This document shows, piece after piece, positions 30-58,758 of a stretch of DNA of 64,000 nucleotides (the stretch's first letter is position 1; each line of letters begins with the position of its first letter). The position numbers were made by a program, and so were the translations under genes. The stretch lies in the sequence record OQ446694.1, one strand, 5' to 3'. Below the pieces are notes generated by a model, which was given only the letters and a program-made list of their open reading frames with translations, was not told the origin of the DNA and did not search any database. This DNA is from Escherichia phage Killian.

Positions 30-2978
30 ATGGCTACTTTAAAACAAATACAATTTAAAAGAAGCAAAACTGCAGGTCAACGCCCTGCTGCTTCAGTATT
101 AGCCGAAGGTGAATTGGCTATTAATTTAAAAGATAAAACAATTTTCACAAAAGATGACTCAGGCAGTGTTATAGAATTAGGTTTAAAATATGGAGGAACA
201 ATTGATGGTTCTTTAACTGTTAATGGAAGTATAATTGGAAATTTAACAGGTAACGCTGCAACTGCAACGAAATTGCAAACACCTAGGAAAATTAATGGTA
301 TATCTTTTGATGGGTCAAAGGACATTACCTTAACTCCATCTGACATAAATGTCAATAGCACAACATTTATAAAAAATAACGGCGAATTACCTGTTGACGC
401 TAATTTAGATGAGTATGGGCCTGTTGAAGAATATCTTGGAGTTTGGTCGAAATCTACTTCAACAAATGCGCAACCTGCAAATAAATTCCCAGAAGAAAAT
501 GCCGTAGGTGTATTAGAAGTATTTGTGGCCGGTCAATTTGCTGGTACTCAGAGATATACTGTAAGATCTGGTAACGTATATGTTCGATCTTTGTCTGCTA
601 AATGGAATGGTGTTAATGGTCCGTGGGGTGTGTGGCGTAATGTTCAAGCGTCAACTCGTCCACTTTCACAAACGATTGACCTTGATAGCTTGGGAGAATT
701 AGAACATTGTGGCTTATGGCGAAACAGTTCAAGCGCAATCGCATCATTTGATCGCCATTATCCAGAAGAAGGATCAGCCGCACAAGGATTTTTAGAAATA
801 TTTGAAGGTGGTTTATACACGAGAACGCAGCGTTATACTACCCGCATGGGTATGGTTTATACTCGTTGTCTCGCTGCTGCATGGGATGCTAGTGCACCTA
901 AGTGGGAGGAATGGAAGCAGGTTGGTCATGGCACACCAGCGACTTTCTATGATGGAGATCTGAATGATTTTAAAACTCCTGGGTTATATAATATTTTAGG
1001 CACTGATGCCGTTATTAACTGCCCTACAGGTGAAGGTTTACCAGCCGTTATTGTTGGTTTGCTGGAAGTTAAACAGCGTGCTTCTGGCGGTGCTATTTTC
1101 CAAAAATTTACTACTGCCGGAACAGGTGCAACTACCCGCGATCGTATTTTTGAGCGCGCATATACTGGTGGCGCGTGGGGTGCATGGAACGAAGTATATA
1201 CATCTTATTCTCTGCCAATTACTTTGGGTATGGGTGGCATTAAAGCTCAATTAGCGGAGTTAGATTGGCAAACCTTTGATTTTGTCCCTGGTAGTATGTT
1301 TAGCGTTCCTTTGAACAAAATAAAGAACATGCCAGCAAATATGGATTGGGGGACGATTGACGGAAACTTGGTTATGTTTTCTGTCGGTCCTAGCGAACAT
1401 ACTAGCACAGGGCGTACTGTTCAGGTTTGGCGTGGTACTGTATCCCAGACAAACTACCGTTATTTTGTCGTTCGTGTATTCGGTAATTCAGGAAATAGAA
1501 CTTGCACAGTTCGTCGTGTTGTTCTTGAAGACGGATCACATACTTGGACTGCTCAACAAAACTTTAGGGGATTGCTGAATATCACTGCTGCTGTTAATCT
1601 TGGCGCTAATCAGAAAATTTCACTTGCTCCAGGAGCATATATTCAAGCTCCTGCTAGCGGTTCTGGTTCTAATACTTACGCAAATCAGAATACTACCGTT
1701 GCGCCATTATATCAGGCCATTAACGATTCAAATAAAAACCAGTTTGCGCCAATTGTTAAACAGAAAAACACTGTAACAAATATTACTATGGCTTCTGGTA
1801 TGGATATTGCTAGTTCAGAATATCGTATCGTTGCTCAGGGTGATTTATCCGCTACTGGAACTACAGCCACTGAATTAGCTACATGGCGTTTCTTGCCGTC
1901 TGGCCGATTCATGTCACAAAGTCGAGTTTACGCTGGAGCAGCATTCCTTAATACCGATGGTAATATTTCTGGTTCTATCTGGAAGAAATATAATAATGCA
2001 ACCAATTTAGACGCTGCCTTGAATACTCGCCTAGGTAAAGGCGGTGATACGATGACAGGTCGGTTAACAATCAATGCACCTAATGATTCTATTGTATTAT
2101 CAACAACTGCTAGTAATTCTTTGCATATTCGCGGTGACATAGACGGGACTGGTAACTGGTATATTGGCAAGGGTGGTGCTGATAATTCGCTAGCATTTTA
2201 TAGCTATGCTTCTCAGGCGGCAGTACATATCACAAACAATGGTGAGATTGCGTTAAACCCGCAAAATACCGCAATGGTTAACGTTAACCGTGACCGTGTA
2301 CACATTAACGGTTCTGGATGGATTGCTAGACAACCGGGTGATTGGGGCAACCAATGGCGAGTAGAAGCTCCATTATTCGTTGATCATGGTTATGTTAGTC
2401 AAGATAGTTATTATCCTATTCTTAAAGCAAGAAGCGTTATAACCAATCAAGGATATAGCACCGCTGTTGACTTTGGTATGCGTCGTATTCCATCACAGTG
2501 GGGGCAAGCAATCATTCGTGTCGGATCCACGGAGGCTTCTCCTGATGCTGGACACCCACAAGCTGTGTTTGAATTCCATCATGATGGATTCTTTTATACA
2601 CCAGGAAATGGTAGCTTTAGCGATGTGTATATTCGTTCTGACTCCCGTCTCAAGATTAATAAAGAAGAATTAGAATATGGAGCAGTCGAAAAAGTTTGCC
2701 GACTAAAAGTTTATATTTACGATAAAGTTAAGTCTATTAAAGACCGTAGTGTTATTAAACGTGAAGTTGGTATTATTGCTCAGGACCTTGAAAAGGAATT
2801 ACCGGAAGCTGTATCTAAAGTTGAAGTTGATGGATCTGATGTTCTGACAATTTCTAACTCTGCTGTGAATGCTCTTTTAATTAAGGCCATTCAGGAAATG
2901 AGCGAAGAAATTAAAGAATTGAAAACACCTTTCTTCACTAAAATTGCTCGTAAAATTAGCAATTATTTTAAATTCTAA
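30..2978 (+). CDS. 37: Long tail fiber distal subunit gp37 (982 aa) with C-terminal intramolecular-chaperone-like domain
   Basis: N-terminus [13 protein letters not shown]...[16 protein letters not shown] matches the conserved gp37 N-terminus of T4 as recalled; C-terminal ~110 aa ([20 protein letters not shown]...) resembles auto-cleaving chaperone domains of phage fibers; SD AAGAGGA before ATG at 30; lies directly upstream of gp38 and t. Confidence 0.9.
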
Positions 2979-2982
2979 CAAC

Positions 2983-2999
2983 AAGGGGCTTTGCCCCCT
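2983..2999 (+). other. GC-rich stem-loop (AAGGGGC-TTT-GCCCCCTT) between genes 37 and 38
   Basis: Perfect 6-bp G/C stem seen directly in sequence, immediately after gp37 stop; no clear U-tract, so more likely an RNA stability or processing hairpin than a strong terminator. Confidence 0.4.
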
Positions 3000-3011
3000 T
3001 TGGAGAAAATT

Positions 3012-3794
3012 ATGGCAGTAGTTGGTGTTCCTGGTTGGATTGGTAGTTCATCCGTAAATGAAACAGGACAACGATGGATGAGTCAAGCGGCTGGTCAATT
3101 AAGATTGGGTATTCCTTGTTGGATGAGTCAATTTGCAGGTCGCTCAAGAGAAATTATTCACACGCTTGGAGCAGACCATAACTTCAATGGTCAATGGTTC
3201 CGAGATAGATGTTTTGAGGCAGGTAGTGCACCTATAGTGTTTAATATCACTGGAGATTTAGTATCATATTCTAAAGATGTTCCTTTATTCTTTATGTACG
3301 GAGATACACCGAATGAATATGTTCAGTTGAACATACATGGTGTAACGATGTATGGTCGTGGCGGGAATGGCGGTAGCAATAGTCCTGGCTCAGCTGGGGG
3401 TCATTGTATTCAAAATGATATTGGTGGGAGACTAAGAATTAATAATGGCGGAGCTATTGCTGGCGGCGGTGGCGGCGGTGGCGGCGGGTATTATTCTCCT
3501 TTTTCACAAATGAGATTGACCTTTGGCGGTGGCGGCGGTCGTCCGTTTGGCGCACCGGGCGGATCTATTGATATGCAATCAGGAGCAACTGCTGGTACTA
3601 TTTCTGCGCCAGGCGCAGGGTCTGTGAACGGTATCTACAACGGCGGGTCTGGTGGTGAAGTTGGCTCCGCAGGAGGTAGATGTAATATTCGTGGTCAAGG
3701 ATATGAATACGATGGCGGAGCTGCTGGTTATGCCGTCATAGGGTCTACACCGACATGGCAAAACGTTGGAACAATTTACGGACCAAGAGTATAA
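3012..3794 (+). CDS. 38: Tail fiber adhesin gp38, T2-type with glycine-rich motifs
   Basis: [13 protein letters not shown]... N-terminus and repeated polyglycine motifs ([30 protein letters not shown]) are typical of T2-like gp38 adhesins; ATG at 3012 has SD GGAG, whereas the ORF-track start at 2991 is TTG inside the hairpin. Confidence 0.85.
3462..3488. repeat. GGC/GGT trinucleotide repeat encoding the polyglycine tract of gp38
   Basis: ggcggcggt ggcggcggt ggcggcggg read directly; a second shorter GGY run at 3524-3541. Confidence 0.8.
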
Positions 3795-6396: not shown

Positions 6397-6722
6397 TTGA
6401 ACCATCCTTTAATACGTTGCCACAAAGTTTTCTGTTGAGCTTTGTTAACACCAATTGAGCGAATAACTGGTTGAGATTCCTGGAATTCTTTATAATCAGC
6501 AAGGTAAATTTCGTAAGCTGAATCCGTAAAGGAACTTATAGCTGCCATGAAATTATTGCGAATACCTACTGGAGCATCTTTACTTTCACGAATAATCATG
6601 TATTTACCAGTCTTAATCTTTACAATAGTTCCAAGATAAGCCCCATGGTACCAGATGTCCCATCCCTCTTGAGTAGGTTCTGCACAACGACGAAGTTCAT
6701 TGATAATTTCTAACTTGTTCAT
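6393..6722 (-). CDS. Hypothetical protein (109 aa), motA.1 position
   Basis: ORF track, ATG start; immediately downstream of motA. Confidence 0.5.
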   Translation of the reverse strand: MNKLEIINELRRCAEPTQEGWDIWYHGAYLGTIVKIKTGKYMIIRESKDAPVGIRNNFMAAISSFTDSAYEIYLADYKEFQESQPVIRSIGVNKAQQKTLWQRIKGWFK

Positions 6723-6732
6723 TATTTATTCC

Positions 6733-7368
6733 TCACAGTTCAGATGCTACAGTGATTACAGCTTCAATGTTTTCTGCCGAGCGTTTAATGTCAAGATACA
6801 CATTACCGTTTTTAGCGATTTTACATGACATTCCGATATCAGTAAATTTCTGAATATGATGTTCCATCATTTTGTATCCAAAAATTCGCATATTTCCATT
6901 GTTATTAATTTCAAAATTACGAATTCCGTGAGTGCGTTTTTCTAAAATAGCAAGATAGTTACTGCGGTAAGTTTCAACCTTTTTAAGAACAAATCCATTT
7001 TCATCTAAAAGTTTTAGCATAAGGTCTTTATCTTCTTCCATATCAGAAGTAATTTCGCGAGCTTTACGAGTTGCTCGTTTTTTCAGCAGTTCCGGAGCGT
7101 TTTCCTGTGCGTATAAAGTTGCTGCATTTGAAATAATATCCTGAGCTTCACCAGTAATGATTAATCCATCACCAGATTTCTCCACCAGGCCTTTTTTAAT
7201 CAATACCCCAATATTACTATTAACTACTGCGTTACCTAAATCTGGATGCACCTCACGAACTTCTGCAGCTGTAATGAAATCTTTCTTAGCAATGGTAATT
7301 AAAATCGCAGCAGTTTTTTCATTCAGAATATCGTTAGAAGCTTTGATGATGTAAGTTACTTTAGACAT
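6733..7368 (-). CDS. motA: Middle transcription activator MotA (211 aa)
   Basis: MSKVTYIIKASNDILNEK...AVITVASEL matches T4 MotA as recalled; SD GGAG. Confidence 0.95.
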   Translation of the reverse strand: MSKVTYIIKASNDILNEKTAAILITIAKKDFITAAEVREVHPDLGNAVVNSNIGVLIKKGLVEKSGDGLIITGEAQDIISNAATLYAQENAPELLKKRATRKAREITSDMEEDKDLMLKLLDENGFVLKKVETYRSNYLAILEKRTHGIRNFEINNNGNMRIFGYKMMEHHIQKFTDIGMSCKIAKNGNVYLDIKRSAENIEAVITVASEL

Positions 7369-7406
7369 TTTAATCTCCGTTTCAGTTCATTTATTTGATA
7401 GGTCTA

Positions 7407-7435
7407 TAGTATCATGTTTAAAGCAGAAGTAAACA
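7407..7435 (-). promoter_or_regulatory. Early sigma70-type promoter upstream of motA
   Basis: Minus strand reads GTTTAC-17 nt-TACTAT, followed by a conserved leader and SD; module repeated elsewhere in the window. Confidence 0.55.
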
Positions 7436-7473
7436 CTTTTTTGCACTCTTTTTCAAGAGCTCTAATAAAGTAC

Positions 7474-7701
7474 TTACTTAATGTTCAGATTACGAACTTC
7501 GATTTCGTCTTCATGGGCAAAATCAAACTGTTTGAATTCTGTGTCACCTTTAAATTTAAAAATCATTGTGAAGAAAGTCAGAACACCAGGTTTTTCTTCA
7601 CGAACTCCACAGATATCATATTCAATACCATCTACAACCAGTTTGTTAGCAGTCAGAGCATTTTTAGCTTTAACGATTTCGTTTTCGATTTTAAATTTCA
7701 T
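7474..7701 (-). CDS. Hypothetical protein (75 aa)
   Basis: ORF track, ATG start with SD GGAG; lies between 52 and motA. Confidence 0.5.
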   Translation of the reverse strand: MKFKIENEIVKAKNALTANKLVVDGIEYDICGVREEKPGVLTFFTMIFKFKGDTEFKQFDFAHEDEIEVRNLNIK

Positions 7702-7750
7702 TTTTTGTATCTCCGGGTTGTTTGTTTCAGTTCATTTATTTGATAGTTGT

Positions 7751-7780
7751 ATAGTACCACAGTATGCTTTGGTTGTAAAC
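7751..7780 (-). promoter_or_regulatory. Early sigma70-type promoter
   Basis: Minus strand GTTTAC...TGgTACTAT; shares a 21-bp leader repeat with the motA promoter module. Confidence 0.55.
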
Positions 7781-7810
7781 CGTTTTGTGAAAAAATTTTT
7801 GAAATAAAAA

Positions 7811-7832
7811 AGGGAGAGCCGAGGCTCTCCCT
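7811..7832 (-). terminator. Rho-independent terminator hairpin
   Basis: GGGAGAGCC/GGCTCTCCC stem followed on the minus strand by UUUUUAUUU. Confidence 0.6.
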
Positions 7833-7836
7833 AAAA

Positions 7837-7986
7837 TTACTGCATGACTGTGATAACTGTCATGATAACACGTTGAATTCCGAACGCAAGAAGACCTCCT
7901 GCTACGGCAGGAACAACACCTAAACCCGCCAGTAAAATGCCACCAGATACTAATGCAGCGCTTGTGATACCAATGAATGGACTCAT
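7837..7986 (-). CDS. Small hydrophobic peptide (49 aa)
   Basis: Hand translation MSPFIGITSAALVSGGILLAGLGVVPAVAGG...; ATGA overlap with gene 52 stop. Confidence 0.4.
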   Translation of the reverse strand: MSPFIGITSAALVSGGILLAGLGVVPAVAGGLLAFGIQRVIMTVITVMQ

Positions 7987-9311
7987 TTGATTTCCTCTAA
8001 ATCTTTGGTGTATTCGGTAACTACATCAGTAGTTTTCCAATATTCGTTTTCTTCTTTCTTAGCTTTAGCTTCTTCAGCAAGTTTCTTTGCTTCGTCGGAA
8101 GTCATATGAAAAATATTCATTCCGACTAGTTTATCAACATAAGAAGAATACATATCAATTTTAGAAAGTTCTTCGGTCAGTTCTTTACGAGTTTTACCCT
8201 GTACAACAATTTCACCTGAAATTACTTTCTTAATGAAATGTGCCTTGGCAAAGGCTAAACGAAATGCTGATTCAGTTTCTTTGATTTTATTATCAATTCG
8301 TTTTTGGACATAAGTTTTACGAACTTCAACGAAGTCTTTGATTAAATCAACTACGTTATCGTAAACTTGCAGCTTTCCTTTCTCATTAATGACGGTAATA
8401 TTCTGTGAACGACGCTCAATCAACCCGAAGTCTTTCATGATTTTTGCATGGCGTTCTTCTTCATTATCGCTCAAAGAATATTCTTTACGGAATTTAACTT
8501 TAAAGCCAAAACCATGCTCGCCACAAGCATCATCCCATGTAATGAAGCCTTTATCTTCAAGCGGGTCTAAGATTTTACTCACATAAGTTTCACGATCATA
8601 CTTATACGGAATCTCAGTGATATTCATTTGAGTTCGTGAAGTAAACTTGTACGTTCCACGAATTTCATATTGACCGTCAATTTCAACGACTTCACCACGA
8701 AATTCTGGGAATTCTACCTTCGGTTTAGTTACTTTCTTTCCTTGAAGAGCTTGTAATACAGCTTTCTTGACAGAAGAAACGCTATGAGGAAGAATGTAAG
8801 TTGCATAACCAGTTGCAATACCGGAAACACCATTAAGAAGAACGGTAGGAATAATAGGCAAATAGAAAGCAGGCGGAATGTGTTCTTTATCTTGATGTAC
8901 CGGAGCATATTCAGTATCTTTATATACGCTATAGAAATTTTTACTTACACGAGCAAAAATATAACGACTTGCTGCTGCTTTTTGAACGGTACGAGAACCA
9001 AAGTTTCCTTGACCATCTAACAAAGGAAAGTTATTATTCCAGGTGTTAGCCATCAAAGCCCCCGCATCTTGTGCAGAGTTTTCACCATGATGATATCCAA
9101 GGTCAGCTACACCACCTGCAATAGAAGCAAGTTTGTGAAACTTATCTTTATTTCCTCGCGCCAAATCAAGAGCTCGAGCAATAACAAATCGTTGAACTGG
9201 CTTAAATCCATCAATCATATTTGGAATAGCACGATTTTCAACCGTGTACATAGCATAAGCCAGTGCTTCATTATCAATGATACTTTTTAAATCGCGATTA
9301 TTCAGTTGCAT
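7983..9311 (-). CDS. 52: DNA topoisomerase II medium subunit gp52 (442 aa)
   Basis: MQLNNRDLKSIIDNEALAYAMYTVENRAIP...; GyrA-like breakage-reunion region; size and synteny as in T4. Confidence 0.93.
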   Translation of the reverse strand: MQLNNRDLKSIIDNEALAYAMYTVENRAIPNMIDGFKPVQRFVIARALDLARGNKDKFHKLASIAGGVADLGYHHGENSAQDAGALMANTWNNNFPLLDGQGNFGSRTVQKAAASRYIFARVSKNFYSVYKDTEYAPVHQDKEHIPPAFYLPIIPTVLLNGVSGIATGYATYILPHSVSSVKKAVLQALQGKKVTKPKVEFPEFRGEVVEIDGQYEIRGTYKFTSRTQMNITEIPYKYDRETYVSKILDPLEDKGFITWDDACGEHGFGFKVKFRKEYSLSDNEEERHAKIMKDFGLIERRSQNITVINEKGKLQVYDNVVDLIKDFVEVRKTYVQKRIDNKIKETESAFRLAFAKAHFIKKVISGEIVVQGKTRKELTEELSKIDMYSSYVDKLVGMNIFHMTSDEAKKLAEEAKAKKEENEYWKTTDVVTEYTKDLEEIK

Positions 9312-46995: not shown

Positions 46996-47182
46996 TATCT
47001 AAAATGTTGAAGTTAAAAGATACAGCCCAGTCAGTGCAGACCGTAACCTTTTTAATACAATTATCTTCAACCTCTAGCGGTTCAAACCAATATTCAATAA
47101 TTTCTTTATGCCCAATATCATCTTTTACTTCGCATTCAAAATGCTGACTCATCATAACATTTTTAAATTCATCAAAAGTCAT
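46919..47182 (-). CDS. Hypothetical protein (87 aa), 46.2 position
   Basis: ORF track, ATG start; overlaps the next ORF in a different frame. Confidence 0.45.
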   Translation of the reverse strand: MTFDEFKNVMMSQHFECEVKDDIGHKEIIEYWFEPLEVEDNCIKKVTVCTDWAVSFNFNILDNDTPKSLQDMAVSCIKDAYCEVFDI

Positions 47183-48198
47183 TGTGTTGCCTCTACATAT
47201 AACTGATTTGCATATTGAATAAGTGCTTCGCGGTCAGAATCAGTGATGTCTGGAATTGCATTAATGTATTCTTCCATCAATGTCTGAAGAGATTGAACTT
47301 CAACTTCTTCACTATCATCTGACTCAACAGAGTTATCAATCTTTGACACAACTCGTAATGAATGCACAACTTTTTCTAGTTCAGATTCGAACTTCGTCAG
47401 ATTTTTGTCTACCTCAGTTACTATAACACGTACTGATAGATTTGTAAAATCTTTATAGTCAATTTTTCCCTTAAATGGATATTGAATTCGACGATGCCAG
47501 GTAGTGTTGTTTGGAATAAATTCCATTCGTTCTGTTTCTGTATCAAACATCCAGAACCCACGAGGGTCATTCTCGTCACCTGCAGTTAGTGTCCATGGTG
47601 TCCCAATATATCTGACGTTAGCAGCCTCAGAGATAGTATGGAAGTGACCAGACCACACTTCTTTATAAGTCTTAAGGAAATCAGGTTCAAGACCGTGAGA
47701 TTTCATTCCTTTATAAAAATAAAATCCATTCAGTTCCCAGTGACCAACACAAAAAGAAGCAGATGAAGTTTTGATGTGTTCAAGAATTTCACCAGTATTT
47801 TCTTCACACATCCAAGGAATTAAATCAATCAAACATCCGTCAAAATCTACTGTAGTAGGCTTATCATATACTTTAACATTAGGATATTTAGCCAAAAGCT
47901 CAGTAGAAGCATTTGGATGCATTACATTTTTGTAGTGGAGATCGTGATTTCCTACAATAGTATGTAATGTGATTCCAGCGTCATCAAGCATTTGAACTAT
48001 TTCACGGGCAAACTCCATAGTTTTATGCGTGATCGCTTTTCGTACATCAAAAATATCACCGTATTGAATCCATACAGTAATTCCATTTTTCTTAGAATAT
48101 TCTATCGCTTGCTTAATTCCGTCAAGTTGAATACCGCGAATCCATTCATCATCAGCTTTAACGCCTAAATGCCAATCACCCAAGTTTAGTATTTTCAT
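47179..48198 (-). CDS. 47: Recombination nuclease subunit gp47, Mre11/SbcD-like (339 aa)
   Basis: Phosphoesterase motifs DWHLG, GDIFD, GNHD; 339 aa as in T4. Confidence 0.93.
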   Translation of the reverse strand: MKILNLGDWHLGVKADDEWIRGIQLDGIKQAIEYSKKNGITVWIQYGDIFDVRKAITHKTMEFAREIVQMLDDAGITLHTIVGNHDLHYKNVMHPNASTELLAKYPNVKVYDKPTTVDFDGCLIDLIPWMCEENTGEILEHIKTSSASFCVGHWELNGFYFYKGMKSHGLEPDFLKTYKEVWSGHFHTISEAANVRYIGTPWTLTAGDENDPRGFWMFDTETERMEFIPNNTTWHRRIQYPFKGKIDYKDFTNLSVRVIVTEVDKNLTKFESELEKVVHSLRVVSKIDNSVESDDSEEVEVQSLQTLMEEYINAIPDITDSDREALIQYANQLYVEATQ

Positions 48199-48799
48199 GG
48201 TGTCTTTTCCATCCTAATTTAGCTGCTTTTGAAACTAGTTCTTTAATTTTTCCTTTTGTCCATTCAGGACCAGGAGGTTCATGACATAACATTTGCTTAA
48301 CTCCGTTATTATACCATTTTTTACCTTTATTATGTGATGAAGCTTTAAATTTATTTGACCTTCCTTTTACATAACCTTCTGGAATATACGGCAAAAAGGC
48401 AGATTTTCCTGTTAATGGGTCATGTGAATGTATATTTCCTTTACAATTATGAGAACCATATAATGGATGATTTTGTCCTTTAATATCTCTTCCAAATGAA
48501 CCTTTTGGAGCAGCATATGACATATTAAAGAATAATGGATTTTTAACCGCATCATGCAAACGTTGATAATATAGCTCGCATTTAATAGCTTCTTCGCGCG
48601 TATCAAATTCATCTAAAATGCATGAATCAAATAAATGTGGGTTATCTGAAAGTTCTTCATTATAAATTTTCTTATACTTTTTAGATAAAACTGATCCATG
48701 ATATCCGGCTAAATGCCTATCTAAAGATGTAGATCCAATATAAAAAGGAGGAAGTTTATCTCCACTATATATTGTTAAATAAGTTATATATTTTTTCAT
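48176..48799 (-). mobile_element. Free-standing GIY-YIG-like (Seg-type) homing endonuclease gene (207 aa)
   Basis: N-terminal YITYL...FYIGST...EEAIKCE resembles the GIY-YIG catalytic module; NUMOD-like repeats NHPLYGSH and GKKWYNNG; 3-prime end overlaps gene 47 start by 23 nt. Confidence 0.6.
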
Positions 48800-48960: not shown

Positions 48961-48976
48961 AAGGGCCGAAGCCCTT
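48961..48976 (-). terminator. UUCG-tetraloop hairpin after a-gt
   Basis: aagggccgaagcccttt followed by U-rich tract on the minus strand. Confidence 0.55.
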
Positions 48977-50178
48977 TATTTTGTAATAATGTCAAACTGT
49001 TCTTTAAAACAGAAGCTTGAATCTTGATGCTGATACAAAAATTCATAAGCTTTTTCGCGTTCACGGTCATAAAGAGTTCGGTCAGATGACAGTTCTTTAA
49101 TACGCTCAAATGTTGATTCCATGTCATTTTCATCAAACCAAACGATACCGCTATCATGAGAAATTAACGGAGTATTATCAACACGGAATTTTAAATTTTC
49201 GCCAGTAGATTTCCAAAATACTGGAATTGTTCCACATGCACCAAGCTCGAGATGAGTATATTCTAAAGAACGTTGTAGATATTTTTTATCCAACTTACTC
49301 AGCTGATAACCAAATCCGGATTTACTCATACGTTCAAGCATTTCGCTATTTACATAACGGTCAAGAATTTGCGTCGGCAAATTAGGAGCAATTTTAATTT
49401 GGTCTACTTGATGAAGACGATAATACTCGTATGGAATTCCTTTTTCTTTAATAGGAATGAACGCTGGAGAACGTTCCAGACCTTCCATAATAGTACTTAG
49501 TCCTGCAGGTTTAAGATGTTTTTCATGAAAATCAAACATCTGATAAAAGCCTTTCCATGTAGTAGTACGACCAATCCAACGGTTGATATTCATGTTAATT
49601 TCAGAAACATCTTTCCAGTAGGTTGATCGAACCTTCGCAATATCCATAGGAGGCTGAAAGTTATATACGGTCGGTGCTTCTTCAATATCATCAAACAGAG
49701 AAACTGTTTCTGGATACCATTCTTTCATTAAAACTTTATTAAAATCGCCATTATCAGAATGACTAAAAATAACATCAGCTCGACGAACAGTTTCTTCTAA
49801 TCCCAAATTTCGGCGTAAAGAAAGAGAAGAATGGTCATGCTGATAAACTACAACACGAACCGAAGGTTTAATATTATCAATAATTTTTTTATAGTTATTA
49901 ATTGTGTCTTCTTCTACTGAAGTAGCAGGAACTGAATTGATAATTAGAATATCACAATCATTTACCAGCTTAAGTGTTTTATCGTATTCTTTTGCCAATA
50001 AAACCGGAATTGAAAATGACTTATAATCATGTGCGCAATTACGAGTAAATGATTTATCTTTAGCATAAACCAAAGTTACTTCATGACCATTTTTAATAAA
50101 CCAATCACGTTGCTCAAGAGAAAATTTAGTTACACCACAACCTTCAAGACCTCGAGCCATAAAAATACATACTTTCAT
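48976..50178 (-). CDS. a-gt: Alpha-glucosyltransferase (400 aa)
   Basis: 400 aa, ...CIFMARGLEGCGVTKFSLEQRDWFIKNGHEVTLVYAKDKSF... matches T4 alpha-gt as recalled. Confidence 0.92.
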   Translation of the reverse strand: MKVCIFMARGLEGCGVTKFSLEQRDWFIKNGHEVTLVYAKDKSFTRNCAHDYKSFSIPVLLAKEYDKTLKLVNDCDILIINSVPATSVEEDTINNYKKIIDNIKPSVRVVVYQHDHSSLSLRRNLGLEETVRRADVIFSHSDNGDFNKVLMKEWYPETVSLFDDIEEAPTVYNFQPPMDIAKVRSTYWKDVSEINMNINRWIGRTTTWKGFYQMFDFHEKHLKPAGLSTIMEGLERSPAFIPIKEKGIPYEYYRLHQVDQIKIAPNLPTQILDRYVNSEMLERMSKSGFGYQLSKLDKKYLQRSLEYTHLELGACGTIPVFWKSTGENLKFRVDNTPLISHDSGIVWFDENDMESTFERIKELSSDRTLYDREREKAYEFLYQHQDSSFCFKEQFDIITK

Positions 50179-53483: not shown

Positions 53484-53562
53484 AACTTTGTGAAAATTAT
53501 TTTAGGGAACGATAAGAAGGGAACGATAGTTAGAATGGTAATATACAGAATGTGAGAAAGAA

Positions 53563-53577
53563 AGGCCCAGAGGGCCC
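53563..53577 (-). terminator. Terminator hairpin after nrdH
   Basis: GGCCC-AGA-GGGCC stem-loop followed by U-rich tract on the minus strand. Confidence 0.5.
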
Positions 53578-53580
53578 ATC

Positions 53581-53889
53581 TTAGTCTTCTATGATATCTC
53601 TATCATATCCAAGTGAAATGAGAGTTTCTTTGAAGTGTTTAATGTTCTTTTGTCTAGAATCATTGATGAAAATGACTGGATAACGAATGTTAAGAGATGT
53701 GAATCCAGCGCGTTTAGCAAGAGATACAATCAGTGGACGATCATACTCAATCTTACCATTATTTGTAAGAACTTTATAGAAAGTAAAAGGAGCATTGAGC
53801 TCCTTTAGAAGTTTTGTAACTGATTGACATCCAGGACAACGACCTACTTCATCTGGAATTCCATAGACTTCAATCTTGTTTTGTTTCAC
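53581..53889 (-). CDS. nrdH: Glutaredoxin-like protein NrdH (102 aa, GTG start)
   Basis: CPGC redox motif; adjacent to nrdG and nrdD; SD AAGGAA before GTG. Confidence 0.8.
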   Translation of the reverse strand: MKQNKIEVYGIPDEVGRCPGCQSVTKLLKELNAPFTFYKVLTNNGKIEYDRPLIVSLAKRAGFTSLNIRYPVIFINDSRQKNIKHFKETLISLGYDRDIIED

Positions 53890-53891
53890 AA

Positions 53892-54104
53892 CTATTCCTT
53901 ACTAAGAGCAGCATTCAGCTTATTAGTAATTTTATCCAGACGCTCATTGAACTCGCTAGAAGATAGTCCTTTTTCTGGAGAAATTAAGCTAATCACGAAA
54001 AATATAGCAATAAAAGGAATAAGAAAAATAGCACCAACTGCCATAAACAAAAAGAACGTTACAGTTGTAAGAAAATCAGCTAAACCTTTACGAAATTTAT
54101 ACAT
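53892..54104 (-). CDS. Small membrane protein (70 aa)
   Basis: Hydrophobic core FFLFMAVGAIFLIPFIAIFFVISLI; ATG start. Confidence 0.5.
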   Translation of the reverse strand: MYKFRKGLADFLTTVTFFLFMAVGAIFLIPFIAIFFVISLISPEKGLSSSEFNERLDKITNKLNAALSKE

Positions 54105-54219
54105 ATTTTACCCTTAATTGATTAACCAAGCATTGATAAGCACTAAACTATATTGTGAATAAAATTCTGGACCAAAATGAAAAATCATATCATTTATAGT
54201 GTCCATAATATAATTCAAT

Positions 54220-54690
54220 TTAATCATGTTTCCACACCCCATCGGTATTTGACCAAAGTCGCTGATTATCTGATCCTCGCCACAGCTTTTTGGTCGGAAG
54301 ATTTTTCTCATACTTCCCATCAATAATAACATCAACATATTTAAGCATTTCTAGTTGTTTAATATCCTCAAACTTATATCCTGTCCACAACCAAATGCTT
54401 TTATTTGGATAAAGATTTTTTACTGTTTGAACAATGCAATGAACAACATCTCGGTTATCAGGATAGAGAGGGTCTCCTCCAGTTATAGTTAATCCTTCTA
54501 TATAATCATTATTCAAACATTCAATTAATTGTTCCAGTGTTTCACCAGTGAATGGAACGCCATTTCTAGCATTCCACGTTGATTTATTATAACACCCTTC
54601 GCATTTATGCAAACAACCTGTAACGAAAAGAACGACCCTGCATCCAGGGCCATTCACAAAATCGCAGGGATAAAATCTATCGTAATTCAT
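54220..54690 (-). CDS. nrdG: Anaerobic ribonucleotide reductase activating protein NrdG (156 aa)
   Basis: Radical-SAM cysteine cluster CLHKCEGC; 156 aa; adjacent to nrdD. Confidence 0.9.
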   Translation of the reverse strand: MNYDRFYPCDFVNGPGCRVVLFVTGCLHKCEGCYNKSTWNARNGVPFTGETLEQLIECLNNDYIEGLTITGGDPLYPDNRDVVHCIVQTVKNLYPNKSIWLWTGYKFEDIKQLEMLKYVDVIIDGKYEKNLPTKKLWRGSDNQRLWSNTDGVWKHD

Positions 54691-56504
54691 TGGTGTTTAA
54701 CCCTATGCATGATTTCTTTATTTTTGCCGAGATTAAATCCGCGTTCATTCGGATTTCCCAAATAACCACAAGTTCTTCTTATTGTGTTCATCTTTTTAGG
54801 ATCAGTTTCTCCACAAATAGAACAAACAAACCCGTTTTCAGTAGGAGTCATTTCATGGGTACTTCCGCATGTAAAACATTTATCTACTGGCATATTAACA
54901 CCAAAATAATCTAAATGTTGTGCAGCATAATCCCATACAGCCTCAAGACCTTTTAGGTTATTTTTCATATCAGGAAGTTCAACATAAGAAATGTGACCAC
55001 CTGTCGCAATGAAATGATATGGGGCTTCGCGAGAAATCTTTTCAAATGGAGTAATATTTTCTTCTACCGAAACGTGGAAACTGTTAGTGTACCAGCCTTT
55101 ATCGGTAACATCTTTTACACTTCCATATTTTTCGGTATCAAGTTTACAGAAGCGATAGCACAGGTTTTCAGCAGGTGTAGAATACAAACTAAAAGCAAAA
55201 CCGGTTCTTTCAGTCCACTGCTTAAGATGAGCATTCATTTTAGTTAAAATTTCTTGTCCAATATCACGACCGACAAGAATATTCAATTCGTGAATACCAA
55301 TGTATCCTAGGGACACTGAACTTCTACCGTTTTTAAATAACTCAATTATATCGTCATCAGGTTTAAGACGAACCCCGAATGCACCTTCTTGATAAAGAAT
55401 AGGAGCAACAGTCGCTTTAACTCCTTTTAAGGAACTAATTCTACACATCAAAGCTTCAAAACACAAATCCATTCGTTCATTGAACAATTCAGCAAATTTC
55501 TGTTCATTGAACTGTGTTCCAATATAAGAATCTAGTGCAATGCGAGGAAGATTCAGTGTTACAACACCAAGATTATTACGTCCATCAAGAATTTCATTAC
55601 CAGTCGAATCTTTCCATACACCCAAGAAACTACGACAACCCATTGGAGAAACAGGAATAGATGAACCGGTGATAGCTTTATTGTTCTTAGCTGAAATAAT
55701 ATCAGGATACATTCTTTTGCTTGCACACTCTAGAGCAAGCTGCTTAATATCATAGTTTGGATCGTCTTTATAAAGATTAACACCTTCTTCAACGAACATA
55801 ACAAGCTTAGGGAAAATAGGAGTTATCCCATCACGACCAAGACCTTTAATACGATTTTTCAGAATTGCTTTCTGAATCATTCGTTCAGTCCAGTCAGTTC
55901 CCGTACCAAATGTAATTGTTACAAAAGGCGTTTGTCCGTTTGAACTAAAGAGAGTATTTACTTCATATTCATAAGCTTGGAATGCATCGTATACGTCTTT
56001 TTCTGTTTTAGACTGGGCGTAATTCAACGCATCAGCGATTTGCCATTTTTCTGCGTCCTCAATATGTTTTGCGTAGGTGCGTTTAACATAAGGAGAAAGG
56101 ACTTTATCTACATTCGCAAAAGTCGTTCCGCCATATTGATGGGAAGCAACCTGCGCAGTAATTTGTGCCATAATTGCAGTAGCAACGCCGATTGATTTAG
56201 GAGTTTCAATCTGCGCATTACCGAGCTTAAATCCATTCTCAAGCATTCCTTTTAAATCGACTAAACAGCAATTAGTAAAAGGCAATGATATACTGTAATC
56301 TAAATCATGAAAATGAATTAATCCAACATTATGTGCATTTACAATATGACTTGGAAGAATACGACAAGCGATATGTTTAGAAACAATACCGGCCATTAAA
56401 TCTCTTTTTGTTGGAAAGACACGAGAATCTTTGTTGGCGTTTTCGGTATTTAATTCTTTATCTTTATTTGAAATAAAATTTAAAACATCTTTCTCTAAAG
56501 ACAT
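54687..56504 (-). CDS. nrdD: Anaerobic ribonucleotide reductase NrdD, uninterrupted (605 aa)
   Basis: C-terminal zinc ribbon CFTCGS...CSICG and glycyl-radical RxCGY motif; continuous 605-aa ORF. Confidence 0.93.
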   Translation of the reverse strand: MSLEKDVLNFISNKDKELNTENANKDSRVFPTKRDLMAGIVSKHIACRILPSHIVNAHNVGLIHFHDLDYSISLPFTNCCLVDLKGMLENGFKLGNAQIETPKSIGVATAIMAQITAQVASHQYGGTTFANVDKVLSPYVKRTYAKHIEDAEKWQIADALNYAQSKTEKDVYDAFQAYEYEVNTLFSSNGQTPFVTITFGTGTDWTERMIQKAILKNRIKGLGRDGITPIFPKLVMFVEEGVNLYKDDPNYDIKQLALECASKRMYPDIISAKNNKAITGSSIPVSPMGCRSFLGVWKDSTGNEILDGRNNLGVVTLNLPRIALDSYIGTQFNEQKFAELFNERMDLCFEALMCRISSLKGVKATVAPILYQEGAFGVRLKPDDDIIELFKNGRSSVSLGYIGIHELNILVGRDIGQEILTKMNAHLKQWTERTGFAFSLYSTPAENLCYRFCKLDTEKYGSVKDVTDKGWYTNSFHVSVEENITPFEKISREAPYHFIATGGHISYVELPDMKNNLKGLEAVWDYAAQHLDYFGVNMPVDKCFTCGSTHEMTPTENGFVCSICGETDPKKMNTIRRTCGYLGNPNERGFNLGKNKEIMHRVKHQ

Positions 56505-57316
56505 AATTCTAATTTATCCTTTTGAAATTCTTCGTCTAAATATGGGTTCCAACCCATTTTAAACCTTTTGATGAAATTATCAATTCTAAATTTCGGTAAG
56601 TTTAAATCCGCAAAAATAGATGATTTACTTTTAAAATCTGGACCTAAATAATCATATAAAATTTCTGCGTATTTTAACCATAATATACAAGTACCAGATT
56701 TAATTGCTCTCGGAGTTTTCCAAGGTTTTACACCATACATCGGATTTCCACTTCCTTTATGCCTGATAGAAGATGAAATTCCAATTTTAATTTTAGCTTC
56801 CTTTGTATGCGAAAATCCACGATGCGGATTTTCTTTCCAGTATTTTTTAGAAGCTTCTGATATTTTCTTTCTGGCTAAATTAGTATGATGCTTTCCATAA
56901 AATCCATGATTTTTGCCTTTATTACGATTTCTTTTAATCATGGTTATTGATTGCTTTTCTCTAGTTTCTTTAGAAGGAGAAATACCATATGTCGTAAATT
57001 TGCCATCAGCATATGCTAAATTAAAATACTCTTTATTCCATACATCTTTTTCTATATTCTTTTGAAATTCAGCTTCAATGCTAGTTATTTGTTCATCTCC
57101 GACTAATTGAAAATATAATATTTCAACTTTCGGCGTTTCTTTCAACAGGGCTTTTTGAAATTCGGAAGATGACGAAGACGAATAATAAAATTTACCATTT
57201 TTATCAATAATATTCGTTCCGTCAAAAGTGCAATTGGTTTTACTTCCAATATAATAATATGGTGGGGTTTTAGCATTAATTCTACTAATAAATGATAGTT
57301 TATATACTACATTCAT
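56495..57316 (-). mobile_element. Free-standing GIY-YIG-like (Seg-type) homing endonuclease gene (273 aa)
   Basis: N-terminal VVYKLSF...YYYIGSKT and NUMOD-like repeats KNHGFYGKHHT, GSGNPMYGVKPW; overlaps nrdD start by 10 nt and gene 49 stop by 4 nt. Confidence 0.6.
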
Positions 57317-57786
57317 TTTAAACTCTTTCTAAGCTGCTTCTTAAATGAAGCTATTAATTGTGTTTTAGTGTCAGATTCATTATATTCAAATCCTCTTTGA
57401 AGCATCTCAGCCATCATTTCCTCTTTTCCTAAACGAGAAAATTCCTTTGATTTATCTCCAACGAAGTTAGGGTGAATATTATTTTGGGTGTAATCGGATT
57501 TTAAATAAGTAAGTAAATTTTCTAACCATTCAAGATAATCAACGCCTTGTCCCTTTAAGCCAGAACGATTAAATTTGTGTTTCATTTGACCTTCCGCTGC
57601 ATTGCAAAGATTACAGAGCAATCCACGTACCTTTCCTGCTTTTGGTCCATTTAATTCATGGTCATGGTCGAGGTGATTAGCTTGAACATCAGGATTTAGT
57701 TCTCGTTGGCAAATTAAGCATTTACCGTTTTGTGCATTATAAAATTTTTGTTTTTCTTCTTTGTATAATTTGCCAGTCAATAACAT
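57313..57786 (-). CDS. 49: Endonuclease VII gp49 (157 aa)
   Basis: 157 aa; N-terminal zinc cluster CLIC...CNLCN and H-N-H-like core HLDHDHELNG; synteny. Confidence 0.88.
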   Translation of the reverse strand: MLLTGKLYKEEKQKFYNAQNGKCLICQRELNPDVQANHLDHDHELNGPKAGKVRGLLCNLCNAAEGQMKHKFNRSGLKGQGVDYLEWLENLLTYLKSDYTQNNIHPNFVGDKSKEFSRLGKEEMMAEMLQRGFEYNESDTKTQLIASFKKQLRKSLK

Positions 57787-57828
57787 AATTAAACCCTTAC
57801 CTTAAATAGATAAGGGTATTTATTATTT

Positions 57829-58314
57829 TCAAGTATTGTAAAACATTTGATGCAATCGCTTATATTGCCGAATCTTTTGGTCAGAAAAAGAAATTTGAGT
57901 TTCAAGCCATTCAATATATTCTGCTGCAGCTTGCATTAAATTTCCTTCATAACCATCATTATTTTCTTGTGCAGCTAATTTAGCTAATGCATATGAAATA
58001 CGTTCACCTTGAAAAGCGGCTTTAGGTTTATGAAGAGCTTGATCAACTCGTTCTACAACTTCTTCAATTTCGCCATTTTCCGCTGATTCAGTATTCCACA
58101 AGCACCAATACGTAATTGGCTTATCATAGATGTTAATAATCTTTCCATCAGAAAGTTCAATTTCAATAATTCCAGTATCAGGTTCTATATCATCTTCGCA
58201 TTCTTTTGCAAGTTCACGAACTTTAAAGACAGTACCTGCACTAAGTTCCGGCCAGTAATTACACAGCCCTTTATCAGCACGATTAATTCTAAACCACTTA
58301 TCTACTGCAATCAT
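57829..58314 (-). CDS. pin: Pin-like protein (161 aa)
   Basis: 161 aa from the ATG with SD GGAG (track start is TTG); next to gene 49 as for T4 pin; size and synteny only. Confidence 0.5.
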   Translation of the reverse strand: MIAVDKWFRINRADKGLCNYWPELSAGTVFKVRELAKECEDDIEPDTGIIEIELSDGKIINIYDKPITYWCLWNTESAENGEIEEVVERVDQALHKPKAAFQGERISYALAKLAAQENNDGYEGNLMQAAAEYIEWLETQISFSDQKIRQYKRLHQMFYNT

Positions 58315-58437
58315 GTCCCATCTCCATATCAATTAAGTCGTTTATCGTCGGTTCATTATATACTGTTTCTTCATCAGTGTAAACCGGTTCTTCCGGCTCT
58401 GGCTCTACTGTTTCCCATCTAGCCGCCCACCAAGGTT

Positions 58438-58758
58438 TTATAGCGTAATCCATTCTCGTACTGTCTGAGTTACTACACGTTCACGGGGCTCGACTAGTTC
58501 AACAGTCGGAACTGCATAATACCAGTCAGAATGATAAGAACCTGAGCGAGATTCATTTACGGAAACATGTACATTGTGTTTTGGACTAAAATAAACACAC
58601 TGACGATATTGGCATTTACCATCTTGCACCCAGTCTTTTATTTCGACAGGTTTAAGATAATCCGAAAAATCGAAATCATAATTTTCTGAAAATGCATCAT
58701 GGTCTTCGATGATTTCACTCAGAACTGCATCAACATCTAATTTATTTTCAATATTCAT
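58438..58758 (-). CDS. Hypothetical acidic protein (106 aa)
   Basis: ORF track, ATG start. Confidence 0.5.
   Translation of the reverse strand: MNIENKLDVDAVLSEIIEDHDAFSENYDFDFSDYLKPVEIKDWVQDGKCQYRQCVYFSPKHNVHVSVNESRSGSYHSDWYYAVPTVELVEPRERVVTQTVREWITL

Follow-up and report, generated by a model that had tools for sequence, protein, structure and literature searches.

A SegG-like endonuclease gene and a linked, diverged nrdD 5′ end as a putative mobile cassette in Escherichia phage Killian and other T4-like phages

The seg-like gene between gene 49 and nrdD, the gene for the large subunit of the anaerobic ribonucleotide reductase, in Escherichia phage Killian (OQ446694.1) probably encodes a free-standing Seg-family homing endonuclease, carried in a 1,035-nt cassette that would be spread by intronless homing with co-conversion. 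The stretch of DNA analyzed, here called the window, comprises 64,000 nt of this T4-like phage, a Tequatrovirus. The seg-like gene (56495-57316, minus strand) is an intact open reading frame (ORF) of 273 aa, which by homology is assigned to the SegG-like, modular, free-standing GIY-YIG endonucleases. The mobile unit appears to consist of seg together with the first 222 nt of nrdD. In intronless homing, the endonuclease-lacking allele of a neighbor gene is cut at a distance, and the repair imports the endonuclease gene along with flanking donor DNA (PMC2988022).

The insertion of seg is exact. It starts right behind AAAATGA, the sequence at which 49 and nrdD meet in T4, in the T2-type allele and in other seg-less genomes. 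The ATG of seg is the ATG that opens nrdD in seg-less phages, and it overlaps the gene 49 stop codon by 4 nt (ATGA, 57313-57316). At its other end, seg overlaps nrdD by 10 nt (56495-56504). An earlier sequence-only reading had described the ORF as squeezed between nrdD and gene 49 and overlapping both, which these coordinates bear out. In the T4 record, the stop of gene 49 overlaps the nrdD ATG and nothing lies between the two genes.

The adjacent 5′ end of nrdD (56283-56504, minus strand; codons 1-74) forms a diverged patch that travels with seg and presumably represents a cleavage-resistant allele of the target. Its limits were obtained from an alignment of seg-positive loci (window, Manna, G8/L004, L007) with seg-less loci (L003, L005, L006, T4). 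Identities of the window in gene 49 are 96.8-97.0% to seg-positive and 95.8-97.0% to seg-less loci. For nrdD nt 1-222, the values are 98.2-99.5% to seg-positive, but 61.9-63.3% to seg-less loci. In nt 223-535, they return to 91.7-94.2% and 93.9-95.2%, respectively. Similarity to the seg-less nrdD resumes at CCNTTTACTAATTGCTG, coding for PFTNCC, the motif with the active-site Cys79 of T4 NrdD. On the protein level, codons 1-74 share 62% aa identity with the T4 type.

Patch and seg are tightly linked. A megablast search with the cassette matched 50 phage records, 48 of them with the whole cassette at 97.3-99.3% nucleotide identity. The complete patch is present in 48/48 full seg copies, and none of these 48 has an intact seg beside a T4-type nrdD 5′ end. 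In a search with the patch protein, 48 records showed at least 95% aa identity, none fell between 90 and 95%, one between 80 and 90%, and the rest below 80%, the matches being a sample from which an allele at 66-79% identity could escape. The single record at 80-90% is probably that of phage OLB35, the N-terminus of which is 88% identical. T2/T4-type records listed in this search were 64-65% identical. A natural donor lineage of the patch was not found in the sampled phage records, in 44 IMG/VR loci around gene 49 or in JGI metagenomes; the closest relatives among the fetched loci reach 62% (L053 and seg-less Tequatrovirus loci). The phages PST, RPN226, EC128 and pSe_SNUABM_01 had appeared to carry intermediate, patch-like alleles from patch nt 60 onward, because the megablast alignment ran on through the divergent block; they have ordinary T4-type 5′ ends.

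Near-identical copies of the 273-aa ORF (at least 90% aa identity) were detected 49 times in phage records. They lie between nrdD and gene 49 in every context checked (10 shown and 48 full cassettes). Neither T4, the T2-type allele, PST nor most relatives possess seg; there, the gene 49 stop overlaps the nrdD start. Carriers make up ~10% of the Tequatrovirus-like records (48 versus ~480 covering the region). They span two genera, with Mosigvirus represented by AV112, phage 55 and ST0 according to record taxonomy and by L062 with a Mosigvirus-like gp49. Carriers in Tequatrovirus are Manna, G8, fPS-2 and fPS-90 (record taxonomy or publication), besides others closely resembling the window; the top identity to the window in the phage collection is ~97%. 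The phages vB_EcoM_Lutter and TadeuszReichstein (BASEL) are seg-positive as well. The cassette is younger than its surroundings, since seven seg-positive genomes share on average 98.6% pairwise identity in the cassette, as against 94.7% in the remainder of nrdD with nrdG and 86% in the 5′ portion of gene 49. These are signs of a recent horizontal spread. The 49/nrdD endonuclease has been neither named nor characterized in any publication found, and the paper on fPS-2 and fPS-90 does not discuss the gene.

A broader tract of shared sequence was observed at the same locus. Several Mosigvirus genomes (L057-L059, L016, L047) have a Tequatrovirus-like tract corresponding to window ~54000-57400, with ~93-100% identity in a background of 50-85%. 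It spans the last ~90 nt of gene 49, nrdD and nrdG, ends ~220 nt past nrdG, and occurs with or without seg (seg-less in L016). This suggests a repeated cross-genus exchange of the nrdDG module between Mosigvirus and Tequatrovirus. The identity boundary in gene 49 of Mosigvirus carriers was considered as the end of a seg co-conversion tract and rejected, as the seg-less Mosigvirus L016 has the same boundary.

The Seg protein of the window matches PHROG 7504, annotated as homing endonuclease (E 7e-34), and T4 SegG (40% over 128 aa, E 6e-27, pairwise BLASTP). In tblastn searches against phages, the N-terminal 126 aa align to T4 SegG with 39.8% identity (E 3e-17). RefSeq labels the gene as homing endonuclease. 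A chance ORF is excluded by the 49 near-identical copies, their constant position between 49 and nrdD and the PHROG 7504 match. Three parts can be distinguished. The N-terminal GIY-YIG catalytic domain (57002-57316, minus strand; ~residues 1-105) contains VVY5, Y22-I-G24, E81 and N99. Among 24 aligned homologues (alignment A2), E81 and N99 are the sole invariant columns, and at least 90% of the sequences have Y5, Y22 and G24. The counterparts of E81 and N99 in I-TevI are E75, the catalytic glutamate, and N90, a structural asparagine. NUMOD3-type DNA-binding repeats follow (56726-56980, minus strand; ~residues 113-197). Pfam NUMOD3 (PF07460) matches residues 130-153 with E 6e-7 and 29.7 bits at a cut-off of 20.4, and a profile of the family hits 1I3J, the DNA-binding domain of I-TevI, across the NUMOD3 helix (E 3.9e-5). 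The C-terminal domain (56498-56725, minus strand; residues 198-273), a presumed specificity or DNA-binding module, is predicted to be helical with low confidence. It is conserved in the homologues P0002 and P0004; the latter occupies the segG position between gp59 and gp32 and contains the motif GWNPxLDxEFQK. The homologue P0003, with an N-terminal domain of 57% identity, was rejected as orthologue, as it sits at an unrelated locus between gp5 and gp5.1.

An AlphaFold (AF2) model from the homologue alignment shows residues 1-100 with predicted confidence values (pLDDT) of 84-97 and a poor C-terminal half. The strands 2-8 and 21-26, bearing the GIY and YIG motifs, exceed a pLDDT of 93. The alpha/beta GIY-YIG fold of the superfamily was recovered, and the ORF does not lack a nuclease fold. 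A search of the PDB with the single sequence of the protein retrieved nothing relevant. Homology, fold, motifs, the free-standing site, the patchy distribution and the donor-specific flank all speak for a Seg endonuclease, and the Pfam threshold is the only one of the tests it fails. The sequence-only reading had proposed a Seg-like, free-standing GIY-YIG endonuclease, and the profile search that it suggested gave the PHROG and NUMOD3 matches in support.

The proposed homing cycle would begin with the synthesis of Seg from a polycistronic 49-seg-nrdD-nrdG message via the ATGA start; the gene arrangement is as observed, and expression would follow from it. When a seg-less relative infects the same cell, Seg would bind the target DNA by its NUMOD3 repeats and C-terminal domain and introduce a double-strand break into the 5′ region of the seg-less nrdD, most likely at ~nt 150-230. 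The break would be resected and repaired from the seg-positive genome, with gene 49 (57313-57786, minus strand) as proposed left homology arm and nrdD from the Cys79-motif region onward as right arm. Thereby seg and the diverged patch would be copied in jointly, in line with the comparative pattern. The patch, in which 38% of the target-region nucleotides are recoded or changed, would leave the carrier genome uncut. Whether nrdD contains an intron is irrelevant to this cycle.

The cut is assigned to the 5′ region of the seg-less nrdD because the only diverged DNA linked to seg is found there, and is kept in all copies and even after loss of seg. A position at some distance from seg is assumed because characterized free-standing T4 endonucleases cut in this way. 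They cleave hundreds of bp from their own gene, resection into the flanking homology is needed, and the flanks are co-converted (PMC2988022). A further indication comes from L053, a Logan contig (SRR27536177, 4.7 kb) of a more distant T4-like phage with a gp49 of 64% identity. The arrangement (2188-3180) is ectopic, and no other second lineage of seg was found at the nrdD locus. Gene 49 is followed by what remains of the resident nrdD 5′ end (55 codons, ending in PTQRDLLAGIISKHVGRTSLPADVI and a stop codon), the seg homologue and a complete nrdD. The seg homologue is frameshifted and 59% identical over the aligned part. The N-terminus of this nrdD in the patch region is 62% identical to the window patch versus 54% to the T4 type, and shares ELNTEN, PTKRD, GLIH and HDLDY with the window patch. 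The cassette brought its own nrdD 5′ end into L053, and its left junction lies at resident codon ~55 (nt ~160), which would put the cut at ~nt 150-230.

Sequenced copies appear to represent several stages of an endonuclease life cycle. The ORF is full-length in the window and in four other translated copies (G8, L007, L060, L062); only that of Manna is broken. In this Salmonella phage (L001, 4832-5650), TAT is changed to TAA at seg codon 20, inside the YIG motif, and the gene is annotated as two hypothetical ORFs. The Manna copy is a pseudogene. In OLB35 (Escherichia phage, Mosigvirus; MH992122, UNVERIFIED; L047, 2480-2701), seg is gone and the patch-type nrdD is kept. Its nrdD opens with ATGAATGTAGTATATAAACTAT joined to TATATTTTATTTCAAATAAAG, such that the first seven codons of seg (MNVVYKL, GIY motif included) are in frame with the patch-type nrdD. 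The fusion product still has 605 aa. OLB35 bears the scar of a deletion in which seg was lost and the patch retained. In FL18 (Escherichia phage, Mosigvirus; PP400780; L048, 3001-4492), nrdD is absent. A 222-aa ORF joins Seg residues 1-201 (196/201 identical) to a C-terminal NrdD tail ending in WNLGKMKEMVKRVKHA and a stop codon, equivalent to the last ~17 codons. The fusion is followed by a second endonuclease gene (276 aa; GIY-YIG, NUMOD3 and I-TevI-like DNA-binding domain) and by nrdG. The structure resembles the outcome of a deletion between two endonuclease genes that had stood on either side of nrdD.

The relation of seg to the nrdD intron was considered separately. The nrdD gene of the window (54687-56504, minus strand) is continuous, codes for 605 aa without intron or intein, and its product matches Pfam NRDD over the full model (1-562/562, E 3e-170). 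In the T4 record, nrdD is joined from two segments and encloses I-TevII, and the difference from T4 noted in the sequence-only reading holds. A permissive Rfam scan of window 53500-58500 revealed no group I intron, nor any other RNA family, at E<=1; with this library, Intron_gpI was detected in the Manna nrdD at 105 bits, which served as positive control. An alignment with T4, proposed as a check in the same reading, placed the empty intron site at 55966/55967 (minus strand; nrdD nt 538/539, codon 180) on the basis of the T4 exon/intron junctions. It lies 316 nt past the patch end, and seg and the intron site are ~540 nt apart. Seg and I-TevII show no significant similarity (E 1.1).

It is highly improbable that the endonuclease is directed at nrdD alleles with an intron or is a competitor of I-TevII. 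The idea draws on the intron-free state of nrdD in the window and on the location of both elements in one gene, a short distance apart. It conflicts with the co-occurrence in cis of seg, patch and intron in Manna, G8 and fPS-2, which have a T4-type I-TevII, and in F26 and Lv5cm, which have a variant intron ORF. The patch stops well short of the intron site, and Seg is unlike I-TevII. Since seg and intron coexist in cis, seg neither stands in for the intron nor targets it, and an intron-free nrdD is the common state in these phages and no part of the logic of the element. Of the two target alleles suggested by the sequence-only reading, the endonuclease-lacking one appears to fit, given the exact insertion at the ATGA junction and the linked patch; the intron-containing one does not, with five phages carrying both elements. 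The T4-type I-TevII gene occurs in 25/50,697 phage records, mostly T4 strains, and 5/25 are seg-positive. Among natural carriers of the T4-type I-TevII intron, i.e. other than T4 strains, 3/6 are seg-positive; these counts are too small and phylogenetically too dependent for the claim of a positive association.

Some variation was seen in the intron and at its site. The nrdD intron of pSe_SNUABM_01 (L050) contains an ORF with no more than 56% identity to I-TevII. A similar variant is apparently present in F26 and Lv5cm, as their match stops short of the I-TevII ORF. A comparison of the site (window 55945-55975, L001-L007, L047, L049, L058, L059, L062) separated two fixed classes of nrdD. Intron-containing alleles all read GAGT, the intron and ATGAAGTGAACACGTTATTC, whereas intronless ones, including the window, read GA(A/G)TATGAAGTAAATACTCT(C/T)TTT. 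The classes differ by 6-7 synonymous changes in ~22 nt 3′ of the site (GTGAACACGTTATTC versus GTAAATACTCTCTTT).

A more far-reaching and rather doubtful proposal is that the seg cassette could be a portable gene-5′-end module, which also carries the intron and nrdD-nrdG between Tequatrovirus and Mosigvirus. It would supply an NrdD N-terminus with 35% difference (codons 1-74, ending before the Cys79 motif), and long co-conversion tracts would drag the I-TevII intron along. This would account for the three seg-positive phages among the six natural I-TevII carriers and for the shared Tequatrovirus-like nrdDG tract in two genera. If true, a free-standing endonuclease would drive both the trans-homing of an intron and gene flow across genera.

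An alternative, less probable than homing with a distant cut but still to be taken seriously, is that the enzyme recognizes the 49/nrdD junction itself. The insertion of seg would then destroy the target, and the patch would be passenger DNA of the original donor lineage. The insertion is indeed exact at AAAATGA in all Tequatrovirus and Mosigvirus copies examined, and the nrdD start codon is re-used by seg. Plain physical proximity, moreover, would by itself produce a linkage of patch and seg. Characterized free-standing T4 endonucleases, however, cut away from their gene (PMC2988022). The left end of the cassette in L053 is at nrdD codon ~55 and not at the gene 49 junction. In OLB35, which lacks seg, a 49/nrdD-type junction is restored and the patch is still there. 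The patch is also whole in every one of the 48 copies, although the flanks of the carriers differ by 3-7%.

Several points weigh against homing by a cut in the nrdD 5′ region. The linkage expected from proximity is one of them. The placement of the cut within the patch draws on this linkage and on one short metagenomic contig with a frameshifted seg (L053), and an ATGAA microhomology lies at the left junction in L053 and, rather than a break, could have determined its position. Others concern the protein, the activity of which is predicted from the intact ORF and conserved motifs. The spacer from GIY to YIG comprises 16 residues, with a short helix inserted, versus the usual 10-11. An equivalent of I-TevI Arg27, the conserved arginine after the YIG motif in the superfamily, was not identified in the alignment of 24 homologues; between G24 and E81, the basic residues K26 and K43 are common and none is invariant. 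Pfam GIY-YIG (PF01541) does not match the 273-aa protein at E<=0.1. It matches just 3/24 aligned homologues, and this branch of Seg/SegG-like proteins is too divergent for the model. Foldseek with the whole model gave nothing significant, with the I-TevI catalytic domain ranked fourth. No seg-specific promoter was found, and sigma-70-like matches are at chance level. Synonymous and nonsynonymous differences among the copies (8-10 : 4-7) are too few to show purifying selection.

Part of this evidence would also suit an inactive or domesticated protein, e.g. a DNA-binding regulator, which no longer promotes its own transfer. In this case, seg would persist only since its deletion would harm the translation signals of nrdD. 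Degenerate copies are known (nonsense codon in Manna, truncation in FL18, frameshift in L053), the canonical arginine and the Pfam GIY-YIG match are missing, and the ribosome-binding site of nrdD lies within the 3′ end of seg. This explanation is unlikely. All translated copies but that of Manna are full-length, and the motif residues from Y5 to N99 are conserved as described among the 24 homologues. Furthermore, the cassette is ~4× less diverged than the adjacent DNA and occurs in two genera, which requires a recent transfer. Homing with co-conversion of the patch remains the probable explanation.

Concerning expression, no match to the T4 late-promoter consensus was found near seg. The gene looks like a promoter-less cassette translated from the gene 49 message. 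An RNA hairpin of 12 bp is predicted at 57287-57317 (minus strand) and encloses the seg start codon. The 81 nt around the start fold with a dG of -15.8 kcal/mol (z -3.6), and 0/200 shuffled sequences fold as well. The hairpin may damp translation at the seg AUG, in analogy to what has been described for further endonuclease genes of T4 (PMC2988022). The last seg codons contain the ribosome-binding site of nrdD (AAGGA).

All genes of the stretch from nrdG to pin are on the minus strand. Upstream of seg are pin (57829-58332, minus strand; 167 aa in the ORF list) and gene 49 (57313-57786, minus strand; 157 aa), which encodes endonuclease VII with the Pfam domain Endonuclease_7 and its dimerization domain. 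A 10-bp hairpin at 57793-57817 (minus strand), directly upstream of the gene 49 start, was flagged as terminator-like and is probably the hairpin reported to control translation of T4 gene 49. Downstream, the activase gene nrdG (54220-54690, minus strand; 156 aa; Pfam Fer4_12/Radical_SAM) directly overlaps the nrdD stop, with no mobC or segH-type gene between the two; the T4 record has mobC at this place. Several seg-positive phages have a second endonuclease gene in or beside nrdD, most likely at the nrdD/nrdG junction. Elsewhere in the window, a 207-aa ORF (48176-48799, minus strand) lies between gp47 (47179-48198) and the alpha-glucosyltransferase gene (48976-50178). It shows a weak GIY-YIG (PF01541) match below the cut-off (E 8e-4), is 25% identical to Seg (E 0.016), and is probably another free-standing endonuclease gene. 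At this position T4 has the genes mobB and a-gt.x.

The closest characterized relative of the window Seg is T4 SegG (gene 32.1, between 59 and 32). Both are free-standing, co-oriented with their neighbors and located directly upstream of the presumed target gene. SegG cuts gene 32 at a distance and thereby brings about marker exclusion and co-conversion (PMC2988022). The window Seg differs in its locus (between 49 and nrdD rather than 59 and 32) and in its length, being 63 aa longer with extra NUMOD3 repeats. No alignment with T4 SegG itself is obtained for its C-terminal part, which shares the GWNPxLDxEFQK motif with P0004 from the SegG position. By analogy, the same life style is predicted as for SegF, SegE, SegB, SegC and MobE, which are known from intronless homing. 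Unlike SegF-type elements, the window cassette has a sharply bounded flank of 222 nt, which at 62% identity takes the place of the first 74 codons of the target gene. I-TevII belongs to the same nuclease superfamily, resides in the same host gene and shares the short pattern YIG...K.Y.SSS. In contrast to I-TevII, Seg is not intron-encoded and is found at the nrdD start instead of codon 180, and the two coexist in some phages. MobC of T4 and SegH of other T-even phages are likewise free-standing endonucleases with genes beside nrdD. Their genes lie between nrdG and nrdD (PMC2988022), at the opposite end of nrdD from the window Seg, and MobC is an HNH enzyme. Since MobC/SegH genes and seg flank the same reductase gene, nrdD is a hot spot of multiple elements.

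A further insert was observed in one relative. In L035 (IMGVR_UViG_2706796082_000001, 6468-9245), from a more distant T4-like phage, NrdD has 925 aa with an intein-like insert of ~305 aa. The insert starts with Cys, ends with GN followed by Cys, contains LAGLIDADG-like motifs and shows a weak Intein_splicing match (E 2.5e-4). It splits the Cys79 motif between LPFTN and CC, exactly where the seg-linked patch has its right edge.

Endonucleases beside ribonucleotide reductase genes and co-conversion tracts are textbook T4 biology, and the concepts remain unchanged. If confirmed, the window Seg would be about the ninth Seg-type element of the T-even repertoire and the fourth class of mobile elements targeting nrdD, after the I-TevII intron, MobC/SegH and the intein-like insert of one relative. 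The homing model predicts a cut at nrdD nt ~150-230 of seg-less phages and resistance of the patch-type allele. With intact, nonsense, precisely deleted and target-deleting copies, the locus would offer a clean natural series for the life cycle of a homing endonuclease.

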